Shown: positions 1,975 to 18,465, numbered from the stretch's first letter. The stretch: DNA of 24,221 nt from Acidimicrobiaceae bacterium (GCA_003151955.1 PLZB01000060.1:1-24221); one strand, 5' to 3'. Numbers and translations: made by a program. Notes: a model not told the origin generated them from the letters alone.

Positions 1975-3501
1975 ATGGGCCGGAAGATCCTCTTCGTCAC
2001 CACGGACCAGCAGCGCTTCGACGCTCTGGGGTGCAACGGGGGGACCGTGGCCCGGACCCCGGTCATCGACAGTCTGGCCGCCGGGGGTCTCAACTATCGG
2101 CGGGCGCACAACCAGAACACCGTCTGCATGCCGGCCCGGTCGACCATGATCACCGGCCAGTACCCCCGGACCCACGGGGTGGTCTCCAACGGGATACCGC
2201 TGCCGGTCGAGGCCCCCTCGATCGCCGGCTACCTCCACGAGGAGGCCGGCTACCGGACGGCCCTCCTGGGGAAGGCCCACTTCCAGCCGGGGATGGACCC
2301 GAAGCACCAGTGGACCGAGAACCGGCTGGCCCATCTCGGGTCGACGGGCCCCTACCGGGGGTTCGAGCACGCCGAGCTGGCCATGCACGGCTACCTCTAC
2401 CAGTGGCACTACGACAAGTGGCTGGAGACCAACTGCCCGGAGTGGATCGGCGGCTACTACCCCCTCCTCTCGGCGGCAGGTCTCAACGAAGAGGGCGGGG
2501 GGGACACCGGGGCGCCCGAGGTGAAGCAGAACCCCATCCCCACTGCCATGTACCACACGGCCTGGGTCGCCGACCGGACGATCGCATGGCTCGACAGCCT
2601 CAGCGCCGACGAGGACTGGTTCTGCTGGATGAGCTTCCCCGACCCCCACCACCCCTGGGACCCCCCCTACGAAGAGGTCCGGAACCGGGTCGACTGGCGT
2701 GATCTCGACCTCCCCCCCGGCCATCCGGGGAGCCGGGAGAAGATCGTCGAGGTCCTGGCCCGGAAGCCCCACCACTGGCTCGACTGGTACGAGGGGCGGT
2801 TCCAGAACCGGGAGGGTGGTCCGGCGAAGTTCGTCCCGGCCGCGATGACCGATGACCAGCTCCGGGAGGTCACGGCCATGATCCACGTCGAGAACGAGCT
2901 CATCGACGAGGCCCTGGGCCGGGTCATGACCCGGATCGGGGAACGGGGCTGGGGCCAGGACACCGACGTCCTCTTCAGCACCGACCACGGGGAGCTCCAG
3001 GGGGACTTCGGGCTCCTCTTCAAGGGGCCCTACCACGTCGACGCCCTGATGCGGGTCCCCCTGGTCTGGCGGCCGGCCCCCTCGGCGGGAACGACCCCGG
3101 CCGAGATCGAGGAGCCCGTCGGCCACCTCGACCTGGCCCCCACCTTCTGCGCCATCGCCGGGGTCCCGGTCCCGGACTGGGTCCAGGGGGAGGTCCTCCC
3201 CACCGCCCCCGGCTCCGGGCGGGAACGGGTCATCACCGAGTGGGAGAGCCAGTTCCCCGACATCGGGATGAAGCTCGAGACGATCTACCGGGACGGCTGG
3301 GTCTGTACCAGCTACGGGGCCGGCCCCCTCTACGAGGGCACCGAGGGGGAGCTCTACGACCTGGCCGAGGACCCCCTCCAGTGGGTGAACCTCTGGGACG
3401 ACCCGGCCCACCGGGCCCGCCGGGAGGAGCTCCTCACCGACCTGGCCGACCACCTCCCTGCCCACCGGGAGCCGGCCCTGGCGGTGGAAGCGCCGGTCTG
3501 A
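1975..3501 (+). CDS. Cys-type sulfatase (arylsulfatase family). It has no signal peptide, so it is predicted to be cytoplasmic.
   Basis: It begins with FVTTDQQRFDALGCNG. The formylglycine motif CMPARSTMITG (C-x-P-x-R) is present, as are the sulfatase metal-binding blocks (SFPDPHHPWDPP, STDHGE). Confidence 0.85.
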   Translation: MGRKILFVTTDQQRFDALGCNGGTVARTPVIDSLAAGGLNYRRAHNQNTVCMPARSTMITGQYPRTHGVVSNGIPLPVEAPSIAGYLHEEAGYRTALLGKAHFQPGMDPKHQWTENRLAHLGSTGPYRGFEHAELAMHGYLYQWHYDKWLETNCPEWIGGYYPLLSAAGLNEEGGGDTGAPEVKQNPIPTAMYHTAWVADRTIAWLDSLSADEDWFCWMSFPDPHHPWDPPYEEVRNRVDWRDLDLPPGHPGSREKIVEVLARKPHHWLDWYEGRFQNREGGPAKFVPAAMTDDQLREVTAMIHVENELIDEALGRVMTRIGERGWGQDTDVLFSTDHGELQGDFGLLFKGPYHVDALMRVPLVWRPAPSAGTTPAEIEEPVGHLDLAPTFCAIAGVPVPDWVQGEVLPTAPGSGRERVITEWESQFPDIGMKLETIYRDGWVCTSYGAGPLYEGTEGELYDLAEDPLQWVNLWDDPAHRARREELLTDLADHLPAHREPALAVEAPV

Positions 3502-3968
3502 GCCGAGGACCTGGAACGTTTCCGCGGAAAGACTTCGGCGTTGGCGCCGGACGTTGCAGTGACCAACGACCGCTACGGTGGTGGAGGTGGCGGACAGAAC
3601 GGGCGGACCGGGTGAGCCGATTGGTGACGACGAAGTCCTCACTCAATACGGCTACGACGACGGCTCAGCTCCGGCGTTCAGGTCGGCGCCCCGAGAGAGT
3701 GACACCGACGGGGTGTCGATGATCCGAGGCGCTCTGGTCGCGACCGAAGCCGCCCGGATGGTTCGAAACGGCAGGACCTCCCCCGATCCAACATTCGACC
3801 GCGTCAGGTTGACCAGGGCCGGAACCCTCCGGAAAGCCGGATTCGAGGTGACCCACACGCCGTCCAAGCGCCTTCCCGGCCATGTGAGCGTCAGCCGGTC
3901 CCAAACCTGGGACGGAGACGTGACCGAGGCCTTTCACCTATGCTTTGGCCGTGTCGAAGGAGGTCAAG

Positions 3969-4430
3969 ATGTCTGATCAGATCCTCCTGGTCCGAGGGAT
4001 GCTCCCGTGGACGCCTTCTCCGGGTGCGGAGCTCCTGAAGGTGTACCACCGGTATGACCAGCCGCTCCAGGGCATCCTCGACCAGGATGGGGCTCTCTAC
4101 CTGTTCGAATGCGTCGCGGGCGAGGTGGGGCCCTGGAGCGTCTGGATCTACAGCTATGTCCAGGCATCCGAGGTTGCCGCCCTCGATGAAGCTGAGGGGG
4201 AAGAATTCGAGGCGCTCGTGGCACATAGCCGGGCCGAGCGGCCCTGCAAGCTCGCACTCTCCATGGAAAATGCGGGAATTGTCGTCGTGGCGAACGTCTT
4301 GGACATGCGGGGCGGGTTGAAAGCTGGCTTCGAGGAACTGGTTGCGCTTTTCAACGAGCATCTCGAAGATCTCCGCCGCGCCAGCGTCGAGATCGAACAC
4401 GCCGACTGGACAAAGCTGGCTGCCAGCTGA
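3969..4430 (+). CDS. Hypothetical acidic protein of 153 aa. It is an orphan gene with no recognisable family, sitting in a lower-GC patch.
   Basis: A strong RBS GAAGGAGG (3956-3963) lies 5 nt before ATG 3969. GC at third codon positions is high in this frame. The product reads as globular (MSDQILLVRGMLPWTPSPGAELLKVYHRYDQPL...). Confidence 0.55.
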   Translation: MSDQILLVRGMLPWTPSPGAELLKVYHRYDQPLQGILDQDGALYLFECVAGEVGPWSVWIYSYVQASEVAALDEAEGEEFEALVAHSRAERPCKLALSMENAGIVVVANVLDMRGGLKAGFEELVALFNEHLEDLRRASVEIEHADWTKLAAS

Positions 4431-4439
4431 TCCCGCGGA

Positions 4440-4776
4440 GTCGCTCGGTCAGGGCGTCCCGACCCTCGGCCGCAGAGGTGCAGAGGCCAACGGGGCCGCT
4501 CGCACGGGGACGCATCCGCGAGCTTCGAAGACCGGAGGTCTGGCGCACCCTCCATGCTGTCCCAGATCTCGCGGGGGGCCAGACCGGTCAGTCCAAACGC
4601 CTGGACCCGCTCCACTACGGTCGACGTCATGGAGAACGTTCCGCTCACATCCTCAGGAGTCCCGAAGGCGTGCACCTCGGGGTCGAGGGCCTCGGGACGA
4701 GAGGCGATGTGGGCTGCGTTTTGTCGATCCAGGGCTGGTAGCTCTTGAGGTCGGGGTAGAACTCGTAGATCCTCAT
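4440..4776 (-). pseudogene. Possible frameshifted gene remnant downstream of the dioxygenase gene.
   Basis: An ATG at 4776-4774 (3 nt after the dioxygenase stop) opens MRIYEFYPDLKSYQPWIDKTQPTSPLVPRPS..., which terminates after about 43 codons. A second minus-strand frame continues in protein-like fashion (HAFGTPEDVSGTFSMTSTVVERVQAFGLTGLAPREIWDSMEGAPDL). No intact long ORF remains. Confidence 0.2.
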
Positions 4777-4779
4777 CGG

Positions 4780-6117
4780 CTACGGGGCGTCGGCCACCCA
4801 GTTCCCGTGGAACCCCTCGGGGACCCGCTGGGGGAGCTCGACGGTGGCGACGGGCTCGGCGGTGACATCCGCGGCGTCGAGGACGAAGAGGTCGGAGGTG
4901 TCCCGGGCGGCGTCGTAGGCGAGGAGGAGGACCCAGCCGTCATCCTCGGCGGAAATGGGACTCCGGGGGACGAAGACGGCCTCACCGATGCCGACTCCGG
5001 CCGGGAAGGTCCGGGCCTGGCTGGTCCCGGCCACCAGGTCGTGCTTCAGGAGGGTGTCGGCCCCGTAGAGGGAGCTGTCCCCGGCGGCGAGGCCGACGGA
5101 CCAGCCGTAGCGGTGGCGGCGACCGACGACCCGCTCGTCGACCCGGGGGAACTCCGAGGGCCGGTCGTCGAGCTGCTCGGTGTGGACCTTCCCGGCGGCG
5201 GGGTCGATGGTCCAGCGCCAGAGGGCGGGGTTGCTCCCGTAGGGGCCGGCCGCCCCCCGGTCGAAGATCCGGTCGTGGCGGACGACGTCGACGACGACGG
5301 TCTCCCCCTCGTCGTAGGCGTTCAGGGGATGGAAGACGTAGGAGGGCTCCATCTCGACCCAGACCACCTCCGAGCCGGGAGCCCCGAAGGGGAGGACCCC
5401 GATCCGGTTCCCGTAGTCCGGGTTCCAGGAGTAGGGGAAGGGGGCGCTCGACAGGTCGAAGGTGACGGGCTGGTCGTAGAAGACGGCCCTCGTCCCCGTG
5501 ATCGACATGTCGTGGACCATGGGGGACCCGGGGACGGGGATGGCCTCGTTGCTGACCACCAGCCCGTCGGTCCCGACGACGAGGTACTGGAGGTGGGGGA
5601 GGCCCCAGTAGTAGGCGCAGGCGTGGAGCTCCCCCGTCACCGGGTCCAGCTTGGGGTGGGCCGTGAAGCCGTTCGGGAGGGTTCCCTGGAAGTCGCTTCG
5701 GCGGACCGTCTCGAGATCCCAGCTGAGCTCGATGGGCCGGGCTCCCGCCTCGACCAGGGCCAGGGTCCGGCCGCCGTGCCCGATCACATTGGTGTTGGCG
5801 GAGAAGTCCATCCCCCCGTGGACCTCCCCCGGGGGGTCGGGCTCGCCCCTGGCCTCGGCGATGGCCTGGTTCCGGACCCACCGGTTCCGGTACCACTCGG
5901 CCTTCCCGGCGCGGAGACGGATCCCGTGGACCATGCCGTCGCCGAGGAACCAGTGGTAGGCGGCCGGGTCGGGCGGGACGAGGGGGTTGGGGCCGATCCG
6001 GAGGTACCGACCCGAGAGCTCCTCGGGGAGCCGGCCCCGGACGGGGAGGTTCGTCGCCGTGACCTCCTCGGCCACGGGGGCGAAGTTGCCGGCCAGGTAG
6101 ACGCTCGTCTCGGTCAT
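4780..6117 (-). CDS. Carotenoid / stilbene cleavage oxygenase (CCD / RPE65 / lignostilbene-dioxygenase family).
   Basis: Family-typical blocks include the N-terminal LSGRYLRIGPNP, FDGDGMVHG-like GDGMVHGIR, HPKLDPVTGEL, FHPLNAY, and a C-terminal EGFHGNWV. I call the start at ATG 6117 (MTETSVYLAGNFAPV) rather than the longer ORF starting at 6177, which would run through the PadR start and the palindrome. Confidence 0.8.
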   Translation of the reverse strand: MTETSVYLAGNFAPVAEEVTATNLPVRGRLPEELSGRYLRIGPNPLVPPDPAAYHWFLGDGMVHGIRLRAGKAEWYRNRWVRNQAIAEARGEPDPPGEVHGGMDFSANTNVIGHGGRTLALVEAGARPIELSWDLETVRRSDFQGTLPNGFTAHPKLDPVTGELHACAYYWGLPHLQYLVVGTDGLVVSNEAIPVPGSPMVHDMSITGTRAVFYDQPVTFDLSSAPFPYSWNPDYGNRIGVLPFGAPGSEVVWVEMEPSYVFHPLNAYDEGETVVVDVVRHDRIFDRGAAGPYGSNPALWRWTIDPAAGKVHTEQLDDRPSEFPRVDERVVGRRHRYGWSVGLAAGDSSLYGADTLLKHDLVAGTSQARTFPAGVGIGEAVFVPRSPISAEDDGWVLLLAYDAARDTSDLFVLDAADVTAEPVATVELPQRVPEGFHGNWVADAP

Positions 6118-6130
6118 CCCCCAGTGATAC

Positions 6131-6149
6131 ACTGTCCATAGTGGACAGT
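6131..6149. promoter_or_regulatory. Inverted repeat ACTGTCCA-TAG-TGGACAGT in the 41-bp gap between the divergent oxygenase and PadR genes; a candidate PadR operator.
   Basis: Perfect 8-bp arms with a 3-bp spacer, centred in the divergent region (6118-6158). Both genes must be transcribed with very short or absent leaders. Confidence 0.45.
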
Positions 6150-6158
6150 CAAGGGAGG

Positions 6159-6683
6159 TTGAACGCGACGGCGGCATCGCTCCTCGGGGTCCTCCGGCGC
6201 CACGGGGAGCTCACCGGGGCCGGGCTGGTCCGGGCCACGCTCCTCGAGATCGGGGAGTTCTTCCCCCTGGCCCGGAGCCAGGCCTACCGGGAGCTGACCG
6301 ACCTGGCCGACCACGACCTGGTGGAGGCCGGCCCCCCCGGCCCCCGGTCCTCCCGCCCCCACCGGGTCACCCGGGCCGGCGAGGTGGCGTTCCTGGAGTG
6401 GCTGGCCCAGACCCCGGGGGAGGACTCCGTCCGGTTCCCCCTCCTCCTCACCATCTCCTTCGGGTCCGACCTCCCCCCGGCCCGGCTGGCCGAGCTCGTC
6501 GACGCCCATGAGGCCCGCCACCGGGAGAAGCTGGCCCGGTACCGGGCCCTCCTTCCCCAGGTGGAGGAGCACGCCGACGCCTTCGTGGCCGCCACCCTCC
6601 ATCTCGGGATCCGCTACCAGGAGGCCACCCTGGCCTGGTTCTCCGAGCTCCCCCCCGAGGTCCGGGGACGGATCAGCCGTTGA
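6159..6683 (+). CDS. PadR-family transcriptional regulator.
   Basis: A winged-helix N-terminus (LLGVLRRHGELTGAGLVRATLLEIGEFFPLARSQAYRELTDLADHDLVE) is followed by a C-terminal helical dimerisation region. The start is ambiguous between GTG 6141 and TTG 6159. I chose 6159 so that the palindrome stays outside the coding sequence. Confidence 0.65.
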   Translation: MNATAASLLGVLRRHGELTGAGLVRATLLEIGEFFPLARSQAYRELTDLADHDLVEAGPPGPRSSRPHRVTRAGEVAFLEWLAQTPGEDSVRFPLLLTISFGSDLPPARLAELVDAHEARHREKLARYRALLPQVEEHADAFVAATLHLGIRYQEATLAWFSELPPEVRGRISR

Positions 6684-9555: not shown

Positions 9556-10253
9556 CCGCCGCCGGGCTCCGGGCCGTCCTCTTCGACCTCGACGACACCC
9601 TCCTCCCCCAGGGGCCCTGGCTGGCCGGGGCCTTCGCCGCCGTGGCCGTCGAGGTCGCCCACCAGGCCGGGGGTCACCCCGACGCCGGCACGGTCGGGAG
9701 CGCCCTCCTGGCCGAGGCGGCCCGGGGATCGGCCCGGGGGGGGATCATCGACCGGGCCCTCGATGGCCTCGGCCTCGAGCTCCCCGTCGCTCCCCTCGTC
9801 GAGGTCTTCGCCGGCTACCGCCCCAACCAGCTCGACCTCTACCCCGGTGCCCTCGAAGCCCTGGGCCGGATCCGGGAGCGCGTCCCCGTCGGCCTCGTCT
9901 CCGACGGCCGGACCGACGTCCAGGGGGCCAAGCTGGCCGCCGCCGGCCTGATGGAGGCCTTCGACGTCGTCGTCCTCTCCGACGACCTGGGCCGGGCCCA
10001 CCGCAAGCCCGACCCCCTCCCCTACCGGACCGCCCTCGAGGCCCTCGCCGTCGACCCGGCCGAGGCCGCCTTCGTGGGGGACCGGCCCGAGACGGACATG
10101 GTCGGGGCCGACGCCCTCGGGATGGTGACCGTCCGGGTCTCGACCGGGGAGTACTCCGACCGGCCCGACCTCGTCACCCCGTCGGCCCGGGTCGCCGACG
10201 TCGTCGCCGCCGTTGCCTGGCTCGGACCCCGGCTCCGGGTCCGGACCCCGTGA
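9552..10253 (+). CDS. HAD-superfamily hydrolase / phosphatase.
   Basis: Motif I LFDLDDTL (DxDxT), motif II VGLVSDG, and motif III/IV K...FVGDRPETDM are present. GTG start overlapping the upstream TGA (GTGA). Confidence 0.8.
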   Translation: MTAAGLRAVLFDLDDTLLPQGPWLAGAFAAVAVEVAHQAGGHPDAGTVGSALLAEAARGSARGGIIDRALDGLGLELPVAPLVEVFAGYRPNQLDLYPGALEALGRIRERVPVGLVSDGRTDVQGAKLAAAGLMEAFDVVVLSDDLGRAHRKPDPLPYRTALEALAVDPAEAAFVGDRPETDMVGADALGMVTVRVSTGEYSDRPDLVTPSARVADVVAAVAWLGPRLRVRTP

Positions 10254-15728: not shown

Positions 15729-16463
15729 CTACTCCCCGGGACCCGTCGAACCGGCCTCCGACGGCGGCCGCAGGCTGTAGCCCACCCCCCGGACCGTCTG
15801 GATGAGCCGGGGCCCGAGGGAGTCGACCTTCCGCCGGAGGTAGCTGATGTAGATCTCGACCACGTTGGCGTTCCCGTCGAAGTCGTAATTCCAGACCCGG
15901 TCGAGGATCTGGGCCTTGGAGACGACCCGCCCAGCGTTGAGCAGCAGGTAGTGGAGGAGCTTGAACTCGGTCGGCGTCAGCTCGACGACGACCGGACCCC
16001 GCCGGACGACGTGGCTCTCCTCGTCGAGGACCAGGTCGGCCACCTGGAGCCGTCCCGTGTCCCGCTCCCCCGGGTGGGCCCGACGGAGGATGGCCCGGGC
16101 CCGGACGATGAGCTCCTCCACGCTGAAGGGCTTCGTCATGTAGTCGTCGCCCCCCAGGGTGAACCCCCGGAGCTTGTCCTCCAGGGTGTCCCGGGCCGTC
16201 AGGAAGAGGACCGGGAGGCCCTCCACGATCCGGTCCCCCCCCAACCGCCGGAGGACCTCGAACCCGTCGAGGTCGGGCAGCATCACGTCGAGGACGAGGA
16301 GCTGGGGCCGGAATGTCGGGATGGCCTCGAGGGCCTCCCGGCCGGTGTGGGCGACCTGGACCTCCATCCCCTCGTAGCGCAGTGCCATGGCCACCAGGTC
16401 CGTGATGCCCTTTTCGTCGTCCACCACCAGGACCCGCTGTCCGCTGCCCTCTGCCATCGACAT
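15729..16463 (-). CDS. OmpR/PhoB-family response regulator.
   Basis: The receiver domain is VLVVDDE...LLVLDVMLPDLDGFEV...TARD...K. The winged-helix output domain is LTPTEFKLLHYLLLNAGRVVSKAQILDRVWNYDF...VEIYISYLRRKV. Confidence 0.9.
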   Translation of the reverse strand: MSMAEGSGQRVLVVDDEKGITDLVAMALRYEGMEVQVAHTGREALEAIPTFRPQLLVLDVMLPDLDGFEVLRRLGGDRIVEGLPVLFLTARDTLEDKLRGFTLGGDDYMTKPFSVEELIVRARAILRRAHPGERDTGRLQVADLVLDEESHVVRRGPVVVELTPTEFKLLHYLLLNAGRVVSKAQILDRVWNYDFDGNANVVEIYISYLRRKVDSLGPRLIQTVRGVGYSLRPPSEAGSTGPGE

Positions 16464-16480
16464 CGTCTCCGATCATGCCC

Positions 16481-16533
16481 ACCGAACCTGTGGGTCTCCT
16501 TTGACCCTACCCACAGGTTCCTGCCAGGAACGT
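16481..16533. promoter_or_regulatory. Cluster of palindromes in the divergent response-regulator / ABC promoter region: a 12-bp inverted repeat GAACCTGTGGGT-N13-ACCCACAGGTTC (16481-16517), then GTTCCTG-C-CAGGAAC, and the 10-bp palindrome GGAACGTTCC (16524-16533).
   Basis: Read directly. The 115-bp gap between RR start 16463 and permease ATG 16579 is dominated by these symmetric elements. Confidence 0.5.
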
Positions 16534-16578
16534 TCCCTACCATCCCCGGAGCACCGATCCTCGACCGGAGGGGAACCC

Positions 16579-18465
16579 ATGTTCTCGATCGGCTATCTCT
16601 GGAACGAGCTCCGGCGACGCTGGAGTCGGACCCTCGTCACCGCCGTGGGCCTCGCCGCCGGTGTCGGCCTCGTCATGGCCATCATCGGCGTCTCCGCCGG
16701 CCTGACCGACGCCCAGGGCAAGGCCCTCTCCCCCCTCTCCACGGTCGGGACCGACATCATCGTCACCCGGACCGTGGGTGCCACCACCGCCGCGGCTGCC
16801 TCGACCACGACGACGACGACCGCCCCGACCGGCTTCGGTGGGCCCGGTGCCGGGGGCGGTCCCGGCGGAGGCGGCGGCGGCGGCTTCTTCGGTGGAGGGG
16901 CCCGGGGTCTTGGAGGCACGAGCGCCATCAGCTCCCTCAACTCCACCGACCAGGCCACCCTCCTGAACGCCAACTCCTCGATCCTCACCGACCTCTCCAA
17001 GCTCGGCCCGGCCGGGACCGCATTCACCTACGACTTCTTCGTCCCCGGCACCCTCATCACCTTCCCCGACCAGGCCCTCCAGGTCGTCTCGGCCGTGAAG
17101 GGCGTCCAGTCCGCCGTCCCCGGCCTCTCCCTCCAGGCCCTCCACGAGAGCGGCACCGTCCCCGCCATCTCCGCCTCGATCCAGACCGGGGGCCAGACCA
17201 TCACGGCCACCTCGACCCCGGCTCCCCTCACCGCGGCCGAGCGGACCCAGGTCCGGCAGTGCCTCCAGAACAGCGGGGCCTTCCCCAACTCCACCACCAC
17301 GACAACCCCGGCCGGCTCCGGGCCCCCCACCGCCACCCCCGGCGCCTCGGGCAACCCCACCCGGGGCGGCGGCTTCGGCGGCGGTGGCGGGGGCGCTCTG
17401 GACATCGGTGCCCTCGACAGCCGCTTCGGCTCCGCCTTCACCACCTGCCTCCCGGCCCGCTACCAGCAGTACGAGGCCCAGGTCGTCGTTCCCACCCAGA
17501 CCATCACCCAGGTCCTGAACCCGCCCCAGACCGACACCCAGACCAAGAGCTACACCGTGGCCGGCGTGAACCCCTCGAACACCACCACCGGGCTGATCAC
17601 GAAGGCCCAGCTCGTCTCCGGGTCCTGGTTCGGCTCCTCCCCCGCCGACCAGCTCCTCGTCAACACCGCCTACGCCAGCTCGAATTCCATCAAGGTGGGC
17701 CAGACCCTCACCATCGACAGCACCACCTTCACCGTCGTCGGCCTCGTCAACCCCACCCTGACCGGGAACACCTCCGACCTCTACTTCGACCTCGCCACCC
17801 TCCAGAGCCTGGCCAGCAACGCCGGCCGGGTCAACGAGGTCCTCGTCAAGGTCACCGACGCCAGCCAGGTCGACGCCGTGGCCGCTGCCATCCAGAAGGA
17901 GCTCCCCGGGGCCCAGGTCCTCACCTCGAAGAGCCTGGCCAGCCAGGTCACCGGCAGCCTCTCCCAGGCCCATTCCCTGGCCACCAACCTCGGTGGGGCC
18001 CTGGCCGTCATCGTCCTGTTGGCCGCCTTCCTCATCGCCGCCCTCCTGACCCTGGCCAGCGTGGCCAAGCGGGTCCGGGAGATCGGCACCCTCAGGGCCC
18101 TGGGCTGGTCCAAGGGCCGGGTCGTCCGCCAGATCGTGGCGGAGACAGTCGGCATCGGGCTCCTGGGCGGTGTCATCGGGATCGGCCTCGGCGTGGGGAT
18201 CTGCGCCCTCATCACCCACCTGGGCCCGACCCTGACCTCCACCTCGACCGGCACCGCCGTCGGGGCCTCCACGGCCGGGAGCGTCTTCCACCAGGCCACC
18301 ACGGCCGCGGCGAGCACGAGCGTCCGCCTGACCGCTCCCATCAAGCTCTCCACGGTGGGGCTGGGGCTCCTCTTCGGCGGCCTGGGTGGCTTCCTGTCCG
18401 GCGGGGCCGGCGGCTGGCGGGCGGCCCGGCTCCCACCGGCCTCGGCCATGCGGGACCTGGGATGA
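16579..18465 (+). CDS. ABC transporter permease, FtsX/MacB-type. It has one N-terminal TM, a very large (~480-aa) extracytoplasmic domain with Gly-rich inserts, and three C-terminal TMs.
   Basis: A GGAGGGG RBS lies 5 nt before ATG 16579. The C-terminal FtsX core is AVIVLLAAFLIAALLTLASVAKRVREIGTLRALGWSKGRVVRQIVAE...GIGLLGG. The Gly-runs are GFGGPGAGGGPGGGGGGGFFGGGARGLGG and RGGGFGGGGGGALDIG. Confidence 0.8.
   Translation: MFSIGYLWNELRRRWSRTLVTAVGLAAGVGLVMAIIGVSAGLTDAQGKALSPLSTVGTDIIVTRTVGATTAAAASTTTTTTAPTGFGGPGAGGGPGGGGGGGFFGGGARGLGGTSAISSLNSTDQATLLNANSSILTDLSKLGPAGTAFTYDFFVPGTLITFPDQALQVVSAVKGVQSAVPGLSLQALHESGTVPAISASIQTGGQTITATSTPAPLTAAERTQVRQCLQNSGAFPNSTTTTTPAGSGPPTATPGASGNPTRGGGFGGGGGGALDIGALDSRFGSAFTTCLPARYQQYEAQVVVPTQTITQVLNPPQTDTQTKSYTVAGVNPSNTTTGLITKAQLVSGSWFGSSPADQLLVNTAYASSNSIKVGQTLTIDSTTFTVVGLVNPTLTGNTSDLYFDLATLQSLASNAGRVNEVLVKVTDASQVDAVAAAIQKELPGAQVLTSKSLASQVTGSLSQAHSLATNLGGALAVIVLLAAFLIAALLTLASVAKRVREIGTLRALGWSKGRVVRQIVAETVGIGLLGGVIGIGLGVGICALITHLGPTLTSTSTGTAVGASTAGSVFHQATTAAASTSVRLTAPIKLSTVGLGLLFGGLGGFLSGGAGGWRAARLPPASAMRDLG

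Follow-up and report, generated by a model that had tools for sequence, protein, structure and literature searches.

The contig PLZB01000060.1 of an Acidimicrobiaceae bacterium (GCA_003151955.1) raises a simple question: what is the segment at positions 3502-4779, lodged between a sulfatase gene and a dioxygenase gene at a GC content visibly lower than that of the surrounding DNA, and what does it carry? We analyzed the whole 24,221-nucleotide (nt) stretch, called the window here, which is nearly all of a 24.5-kb metagenome scaffold (WOOD18-1_SAMN07125042_METAG-scaffold_14507) from an actinobacterium of about 72% GC. An earlier note on the window had described the segment as an insert with a 466-bp gene-free stretch, an orphan gene and a decayed gene, bracketed by a recurring motif. 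We find that the segment carries a two-gene operon: both genes are intact, they are translationally coupled, and they belong to two uncharacterized families that travel together. The genes, encoding proteins of 132 and 153 amino acids, are referred to by the working names T and A, and all claims about their function are computational. We consider it moderately probable that the pair constitutes a type II-like toxin-antitoxin module or an abortive-infection module.

The stretch that had been taken to be free of genes is occupied by T (Table 1). Homologues of T share 34-51% identity with it. A word-indexed protein search returned five of them, with E-values of 1e-28 to 3e-14 and 42-51% identity over 84-89% coverage, and a profile built from 14 family members gave scores of 124-162 bits on intact open reading frames (ORFs) in 12 other loci. 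The homologues all stand alone, measure 121-142 amino acids and have their own start codons. T had been left uncalled by the depositor's gene caller in the window contig, and the same applies to at least two other independent public loci, in three contigs, in which a T-family gene is intact yet uncalled (L044, 9623-9988; L045, about 259-627; L046, 9628-10014; labels of this form denote loci in our comparison). It is because T goes uncalled by gene predictors that A looks like an isolated hypothetical protein, and this also explains why T has so few homologues in the word-indexed search compared with A. In an exhaustive HMMER search, the homologues of A made up 345 representative clusters (at 50% identity) at E-values of 1e-3 or below, and 152 at 1e-10 or below, so that A cannot be called an orphan; the word-indexed search with A had returned A alone.

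The association between the two families is consistent from both sides. In all 7 loci retrieved with A as the query (L030, L034, L041, L042, L044, L046 and L047, one member being only about 28% identical to the A of the window), the gene immediately before A is T or what remains of it; in all 7 loci retrieved with T (L026, L027, L028, L035, L036, L037 and L040), the next gene after T is A or encodes a protein distantly like A. About 14 independent loci carry the pair. In the window, the TGA stop codon of T (3974-3976) and the ATG of A (3969-3971) overlap by 8 nt within ATGTCTGA, and the distance between the genes ranges from -8 to +19 nt across 13 loci. The translation signals are asymmetric: T starts with GTG in 9 of these 13 loci and is preceded by a Shine-Dalgarno-like site in about 2, whereas about 10 have such a site, usually of the GGAGG type, before A. 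An all-against-all comparison of flanking ORFs yielded no third conserved gene, and only integrases and IS1595-family elements recur. The small size, adjacency and shared orientation of the two genes and their organization as a paired operon are as in type II toxin-antitoxin systems.

Two sets of loci depart from the standard arrangement. In L040, a frameshift splits T over two frames, and in L034 only a remnant scoring 21 bits is left of it; the downstream partner is intact in both. At L028 858-1322 and L040 about 770-1205, a T homologue is followed by a far more divergent partner, about 20% identical to A and detected with E-values of 0.008-0.05 against the A profile, a pattern that suggests partner swapping within the family.

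Base composition and genomic surroundings both speak to the origin of the segment. The GC dip reported by the earlier note is real and coincides with the coordinates given there: GC content is 64.6% in 3502-4779 compared with 72.4% in the remaining contig, and the lowest-GC window of 1278 nt in the contig starts at 3501 (the median for windows of that size being 72%). The third-codon-position GC content (GC3), which the note had proposed to plot, is 0.72 and 0.76 for the two genes inside the insert and 0.92-0.98 for the adjoining host genes; among the host genes measured, the TetR gene is the exception, lowest at 0.83. Elsewhere, the loci that carry the pair have a GC content of 57-71%, and in three long contigs the pair lies 6-10 GC points below its flanks, as in the window (0.594 compared with 0.66 in L042, 0.616 with 0.70-0.73 in L044, and 0.57 with 0.65 in L046). 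Its neighbours include tyrosine (phage-type) integrases, a resolvase, HTH_17 excisionase-like genes, TraG/VirD4 and an rve integrase fragment, and further PemK, HipA, AbiEi, WhiB and IS1595-family transposases. The pair is thus a recurrent passenger of mobile DNA in soil actinobacteria. The mobile, defence-rich DNA and atypical composition that accompany type II toxin-antitoxin systems are found here as well. Because GC and GC3 deviate strongly from those of the host, and homologous pairs lie in DNA of 57-67% GC beside integrases and insertion sequence (IS) elements, the evidence supports the view that 3502-4779 is a short stretch of DNA that was acquired horizontally and now sits between the convergent sulfatase and dioxygenase genes, and the horizontally acquired cassette suspected by the earlier note fits this evidence.

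Transposases of the IS1595 family abut the pair within 0-10 nt, on either side, in three independent loci (Table 1), with 51-61% identity to one another. That the pair is cargo of such an element was rejected: no terminal inverted repeats enclose a transposase together with the pair, and the adjacent IS is all that distinguishes L030 from L031, whose sequences agree to 99.9% from a point 40 nt before T. The IS is therefore a variable neighbour and not the carrier.

One of the long contigs, L042, has features of its own. It bears a TraG-like gene as well as DnaE-type polymerase genes that are split, and CGAACACTCGTTCG lies at about 9572-9585, some 52 nt upstream of the start of T at 9624. CGAACACTCGTTCG fits the LexA (SOS) box of actinobacteria in its GAAC-N4-GTTC form, and SOS control of this copy is possible.

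What kind of protein T might be was approached through its predicted structure. The model, built from a shallow alignment (predicted local distance difference test, pLDDT, of 81), weakly resembles ADP-ribosyltransferase-fold toxins, each of the scores being modest. Its structural neighbours include Tse2, TreX, Tne2 and Rhs toxins, and many of them are toxins that have an immunity or antitoxin protein of their own. A Foldseek search of the model against the PDB gave no significant match, with KptA at rank 2. A sequence-level tie between T and the ADP-ribosyltransferases was rejected, since a PDB profile search with T returned noise only and an hhalign comparison with Escherichia coli KptA was negative (probability 0.4%); in Pfam and NCBIfam, T had no match at E-values of 0.1-1 or better. 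Within the family, T22, G25, F34, P38, S47, G51, R77, L84, P95, H102, W111, F119 and F123 are invariant, the polar ones among them being T22, S47, R77 and H102, and E19, Q23, Y24 and R39 are nearly so. If the strands of the model are equated in order with those of the canonical enzymes, Q-Y-G would end strand 1, S47 would fall in strand 2 and H102 would open strand 5. These Q/Y-S-H positions would then be the places at which the canonical enzymes bear their catalytic triad, an equation made at the level of strand order.

The model of A, the structure prediction that the earlier note had proposed, is of high confidence (pLDDT of 95.9) and shows a six-strand antiparallel sheet, two short helices and a 30-residue C-terminal helix, with no clear relative by fold. 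The conserved positions (P13, W14, P16, P32, G35, F46, C48, G51, W59 and Y61) look structural rather than catalytic, and the invariant residues are P, W, G, F and Y only. Because of this, because the median isoelectric point (pI) of the family is 4.5 (99 members) and because the C-terminal helices are variable, A resembles a binding protein. The earlier description of an acidic 153-amino-acid ORF with a consensus ribosome-binding site holds for A in full (Table 1). Neither the T family nor the A family matches sequences in Pfam, NCBIfam or the PDB, and T and A were not found in plasmid and phage collections or in IMG/VR by a pattern scan, for which the A alignment is too diverse to yield a pattern.

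Table 1. Coordinates of the features discussed, in the window unless another locus is named
Feature	Position	Strand	Remarks
Sulfatase	1975-3501	+	Points toward region 3502-4779
Leader/promoter region	3502-3577	+	76 nt, sulfatase stop to T start; holds motif copy 1
Motif copy 1, GAACGTTTCCGC	3514-3525		Intergenic, overlaps palindrome
Perfect 12-nt palindrome, TTTCCGCGGAAA	3519-3530		18 nt past sulfatase stop, 48 nt before T; overlaps motif copy 1
Gene T	3578-3976	+	Intact, 132 amino acids, GTG start, no Shine-Dalgarno site; putative toxin/enzyme
Shine-Dalgarno site of A, GAAGGAGG	3956-3963	+	Inside 3' end of T; AAGGAGG 5 nt before the ATG of A
Gene A	3969-4430	+	153 amino acids, pI 4.5, ATG start; putative antitoxin/neutralizer
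Spacer	4431-4779	-	349 nt, A stop to dioxygenase stop; coding-like, frame-broken; holds motif copy 2
Motif copy 2, GAACGTTCCGC	4634-4644		In coding-like stretch, 146 nt inside right edge
Carotenoid-type dioxygenase (RPE65-family)	4780-6177	-	Convergent with sulfatase on region 3502-4779
Motif copy 3, 10-nt palindrome GGAACGTTCC	16527-16536		Intergenic, overlaps palindrome
IS1595-family transposase adjoining pair, L026	5319-6326	-	
IS1595-family transposase adjoining pair, L031	856-1854	+	
IS1595-family transposase adjoining pair, L047	1918-2544	-	

Taken as a type II-like toxin-antitoxin or abortive-infection module, the pair might work as follows. T would be a small enzyme with an ADP-ribosyltransferase-like fold, probably one that uses nicotinamide adenine dinucleotide (NAD+) and so modifies a target in the cell or depletes it, and would be made at a low level owing to its GTG start and the absence of a Shine-Dalgarno site. 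A would be an acidic, non-enzymatic partner, made in excess from its ATG and strong Shine-Dalgarno site, that binds T and neutralizes it. If A were lost or degraded, the freed T would bring the cell to arrest, an outcome that would stabilize the mobile element or abort infection by a phage. The suggestion of the earlier note that the 153-amino-acid protein is antitoxin- or immunity-like is thus the best current reading, on a basis that the note had not seen: A appears antitoxin-like because a conserved partner gene, coupled to it in translation, comes before it in every case. The loci in which T is broken and its partner intact (L040 and L034) are a further hint in the same direction.

Several observations weigh against this interpretation. 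Errors of assembly could account for the damaged T genes of L040 and L034. None of the canonical ADP-ribosyltransferase triads, defined as H-Y-E, R-S-E and H-H-h (PMC8120803), is present among the conserved residues of T, and T is not basic, the median pI of its family being 5.3. A has no recognizable DNA-binding domain, unlike most type II antitoxins. PADLOC 2.0 and PHROGs recognize neither protein when searched with T, A and eight homologues (isolated weak matches, with E-values of at least 0.003). Finally, the one fusion found in the A family, described next, fits a sensor-effector logic better than that of a plain antitoxin.

This fusion is the protein P0095 (322 amino acids) of L041, in which an A-family domain is joined to a C-terminal TIR domain of the CAP12/Pycsar type (PF10137, E-value 3e-16). 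Directly upstream, in the segment 3825-5160 of that locus (JGI 3300076620, Ga0643737_0004261), lies a T homologue (39% identity, E-value 4e-22) with the same 8-nt overlap as in the window, and in it the nearly invariant E19 is replaced by Ala. The fusion thereby links the module to NAD+-centred defence. It also lends weight, together with neighbourhoods rich in defence and toxin-antitoxin genes, to a sensor-effector defence module, in which A would sense a ligand or protein, possibly through a helix-grip/START-like fold, T would use NAD+ to make a signal or would be an effector controlled by A, and A would in some lineages recruit a TIR NADase by fusion. We regard such a module as unlikely, given that the TIR fusion is 1 among the 150 members listed, that A lacks conserved polar pocket residues, and that PADLOC finds nothing. 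The likeness to known TIR effectors (CBASS Cap12, Pycsar PF10137) extends to this single member: the A of the window has no TIR domain, and neither a cyclase nor a cyclic-nucleotide-binding domain is present. Comparably doubtful is a broader proposal in which the pair would be an NAD+-centred conflict system of actinobacterial mobile elements, made up of a minimal, atypical enzyme of the ADP-ribosyltransferase fold whose active site (S47/R77/H102) is non-canonical and a sensor or gatekeeper of a new fold that can be linked to a TIR NADase.

We also weighed the pair as an accessory of mobile elements without toxicity, for instance one with a regulatory, anti-defence or metabolic role, the likeness to ADP-ribosyltransferases then reflecting convergence of fold or an artefact of the model. 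The absence of a canonical catalytic triad in T is compatible with such a role, as are the lack of significance in the Foldseek and hhalign comparisons and the lack of a family annotation in any library scanned. We nevertheless hold it to be improbable, as a non-toxic accessory would not readily account for obligate pairing, translational coupling and asymmetric translation signals, for the decay of T beside an intact A, or for the position of the pair beside other toxin-antitoxin genes.

Less probable still is that the pair is an orphan toxin-immunity cassette of a secreted polymorphic toxin system, with T as a detached C-terminal toxin domain and A as an immunity protein kept against neighbours. 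Polymorphic toxin systems with orphan toxin-immunity cassettes have been described (PMC3482391), and the toxin-first order, the acidic downstream protein and the immunity partners that belong to Tse2, TreX, Tne2 and Rhs toxins, which are among the proteins structurally closest to T, all agree with this possibility. The stand-alone homologues of T, however, carry no N-terminal trafficking, Rhs, WXG, LXG or recombination-prone pre-toxin segment, and neither a full-length parent toxin nor secretion genes lie nearby, the contexts being integrases, IS elements and one TraG-type gene.

The last explanation concerns DNA signals rather than genes. The three copies of the GAACGTT(T)CCGC motif on which the earlier note relied do exist, the first at the position reported there, whereas the other two, given as 4633-4643 and 16524-16533, were off by 1 and 3 nt, respectively (Table 1). 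What the copies have in common is only GAACGTT plus (T)CC. GAACGTT has 5 strand-matches in the window compared with 0.65 expected, a count reached in 1 of 100 shuffles, and two of the copies, 1 and 3, lie between genes, each overlapping a palindrome. The rarity claimed for the motif (well under one occurrence expected) does not survive comparison with shuffled sequences and with other words: 81% of shuffles produce an exact 7-mer common to the two flanks (76 nt on the left, 349 nt on the right), 2-10% produce the gapped 7+4 match, a pattern defined after being seen, and the window holds 46 further recurrent 9-mers of equal or lower probability, at expectations of 0.06 or below. It is therefore very improbable that the repeats delimit the cassette as att-like sites, or that one regulator binds all three and links the cassette to the response-regulator/ABC promoter, considering also that copy 2 lies well inside the right boundary in a coding-like stretch, that the window has no tRNA gene and no integrase among the genes called in its first 14.6 kb, that a repeat search found nothing at the insert edges, and that GGAACGTT was not found near the pair in any other locus. 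We treat the motif as a chance recurrence, no rarer than expected and outside the mechanism of the cassette.

Other signals in and around the operon are few. The palindrome TTTCCGCGGAAA is the only candidate operator for the cassette; the regions upstream of the T homologues contain no common palindrome, no equivalent motif and nothing comparable to TTTCCGCGGAAA. A consensus scan found no sigma-70-like promoter and no intrinsic terminator, the leader folds no better than shuffled sequences (z = -0.37), and Rfam has no match in 3502-4779. Copy 3 of the motif lies in the divergent promoter region 16464-16579, between a response regulator gene (15729-16463, minus strand) and an ABC-type permease gene (from 16580, plus strand). 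Symmetric sequence is dense here: a perfect 10-nt inverted repeat, ACCTGTGGGT/ACCCACAGGT (16486-16495 and 16509-16518, with a 13-nt spacer), is followed by GGAACGTTCC. This is likely an operator for the adjacent two-component regulator, unrelated to the cassette.

Returning to the toxin-antitoxin-like reading, we compared the pair with known systems. Its logic appears closest to that of Tse2-Tsi2 and of the toxin-antitoxin systems with an ADP-ribosyltransferase-fold toxin, DarTG, ParST, MbcTA and RES-Xre (PMC6436930, PMC7758455, PMC8120803). The pair falls outside all of these by sequence, motif and type of partner, and we class it as a new toxin-antitoxin-like family pair, not as something categorically new. 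With Tse2-Tsi2 of Pseudomonas aeruginosa (PDB 5ako) it shares no detectable sequence similarity, and the Pfam family ADPRTs_Tse2 is unmatched; moreover, Tse2 is a secreted, proteobacterial substrate of a type VI secretion system, whereas the pair of T and A stands alone, on mobile DNA of actinobacteria. A combines a six-strand sheet with helices; Tsi2, by contrast, is short and all-helical. With respect to DarTG and RES-Xre (ParST, MbcTA), A is neither a macrodomain hydrolase like DarG nor an Xre helix-turn-helix protein, and on the toxin side S47, R77 and H102 of T do not reproduce the R-E-S or DarT motifs and the Pfam RES and DarT families are not matched. Finally, compared with the minimal H-H-h enzymes, Tpt1/KptA and DUF952/CC0527, T has neither the winged-helix lobe at the N-terminus nor the R-H-R-R tetrad, and H-x-S/T is found in only 9 of 14 members of the T family, with a different order of strands.

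The spacer between A and the dioxygenase gene holds what the earlier note had called a decayed gene. Two coding-like frames can be recognized on the minus strand from GC at codon positions, one at 4776-4645 (GC3 of 0.86, with an ATG at 4776) and one at about 4675-4500 (GC3 of about 0.80), and the signal switches frame near an A4 run at about 4716-4720. The frame-repaired product of 117 amino acids had no homologue in a word-indexed search and no match in Pfam or NCBIfam, a tblastx comparison of the remnant with all loci, the window and the regions downstream of A homologues returned low-complexity noise only, and the spacer has no notable RNA structure. The minus-strand signal could reflect a decayed gene of the host or the donor, an assembly indel, or plain non-coding DNA.

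As for the wider setting, the gene order is TetR regulator, alpha/beta hydrolase, sulfatase, the segment 3502-4779, the carotenoid-oxygenase gene and a PadR-like regulator. The closest relatives of the dioxygenase, at 54% identity, belong to Acidimicrobiia genomes assembled from metagenomes. A sulfatase gene adjoined the dioxygenase gene in none of the 24 loci (all at 54% identity or below) returned by a dioxygenase scan of genome contigs, and the sulfatase had no relative of at least 90% identity among 15 billion proteins, so that searches with these two genes yielded no syntenic or close relative of the locus. A second, milder GC dip (0.65-0.69) lies at 151-900, over the TetR-family gene. 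Two tandem arrays occupy the left end of the contig within a partial minus-strand gene, at 3-77 and 99-181, one with 3.1 copies of a 24-nt unit (90% matches) and the other with 5.5 copies of a 15-nt unit (94% matches). A weak Rfam match to the Mycobacterium small RNA Ms_AS-5 at 2125-2171 (minus strand, antisense within the sulfatase gene; 30.5 bits compared with a gathering score of 46, E-value 0.047) is probably due to chance.

For the contig itself, the analysis corrects the annotation and dismisses the DNA motif. Beyond the contig, it exposes a blind spot of annotation, namely genes in high-GC genomes that start with GTG, lack a Shine-Dalgarno site and have an atypical composition. If the toxin-antitoxin-like reading is true, the pair would be a new toxin-antitoxin or defence family of which both parts lie outside Pfam, NCBIfam, PADLOC and PHROGs, and in which the A side is widely distributed. 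The range of NAD+-using toxins would then be widened by a minimal ADP-ribosyltransferase-like protein that lacks the canonical triad. The lone TIR fusion hints at a tie to immunity by NAD+ depletion, and should the NAD+-centred conflict system prove true, it would be a new family of defence or addiction systems whose enzymatic half has systematically gone uncalled.

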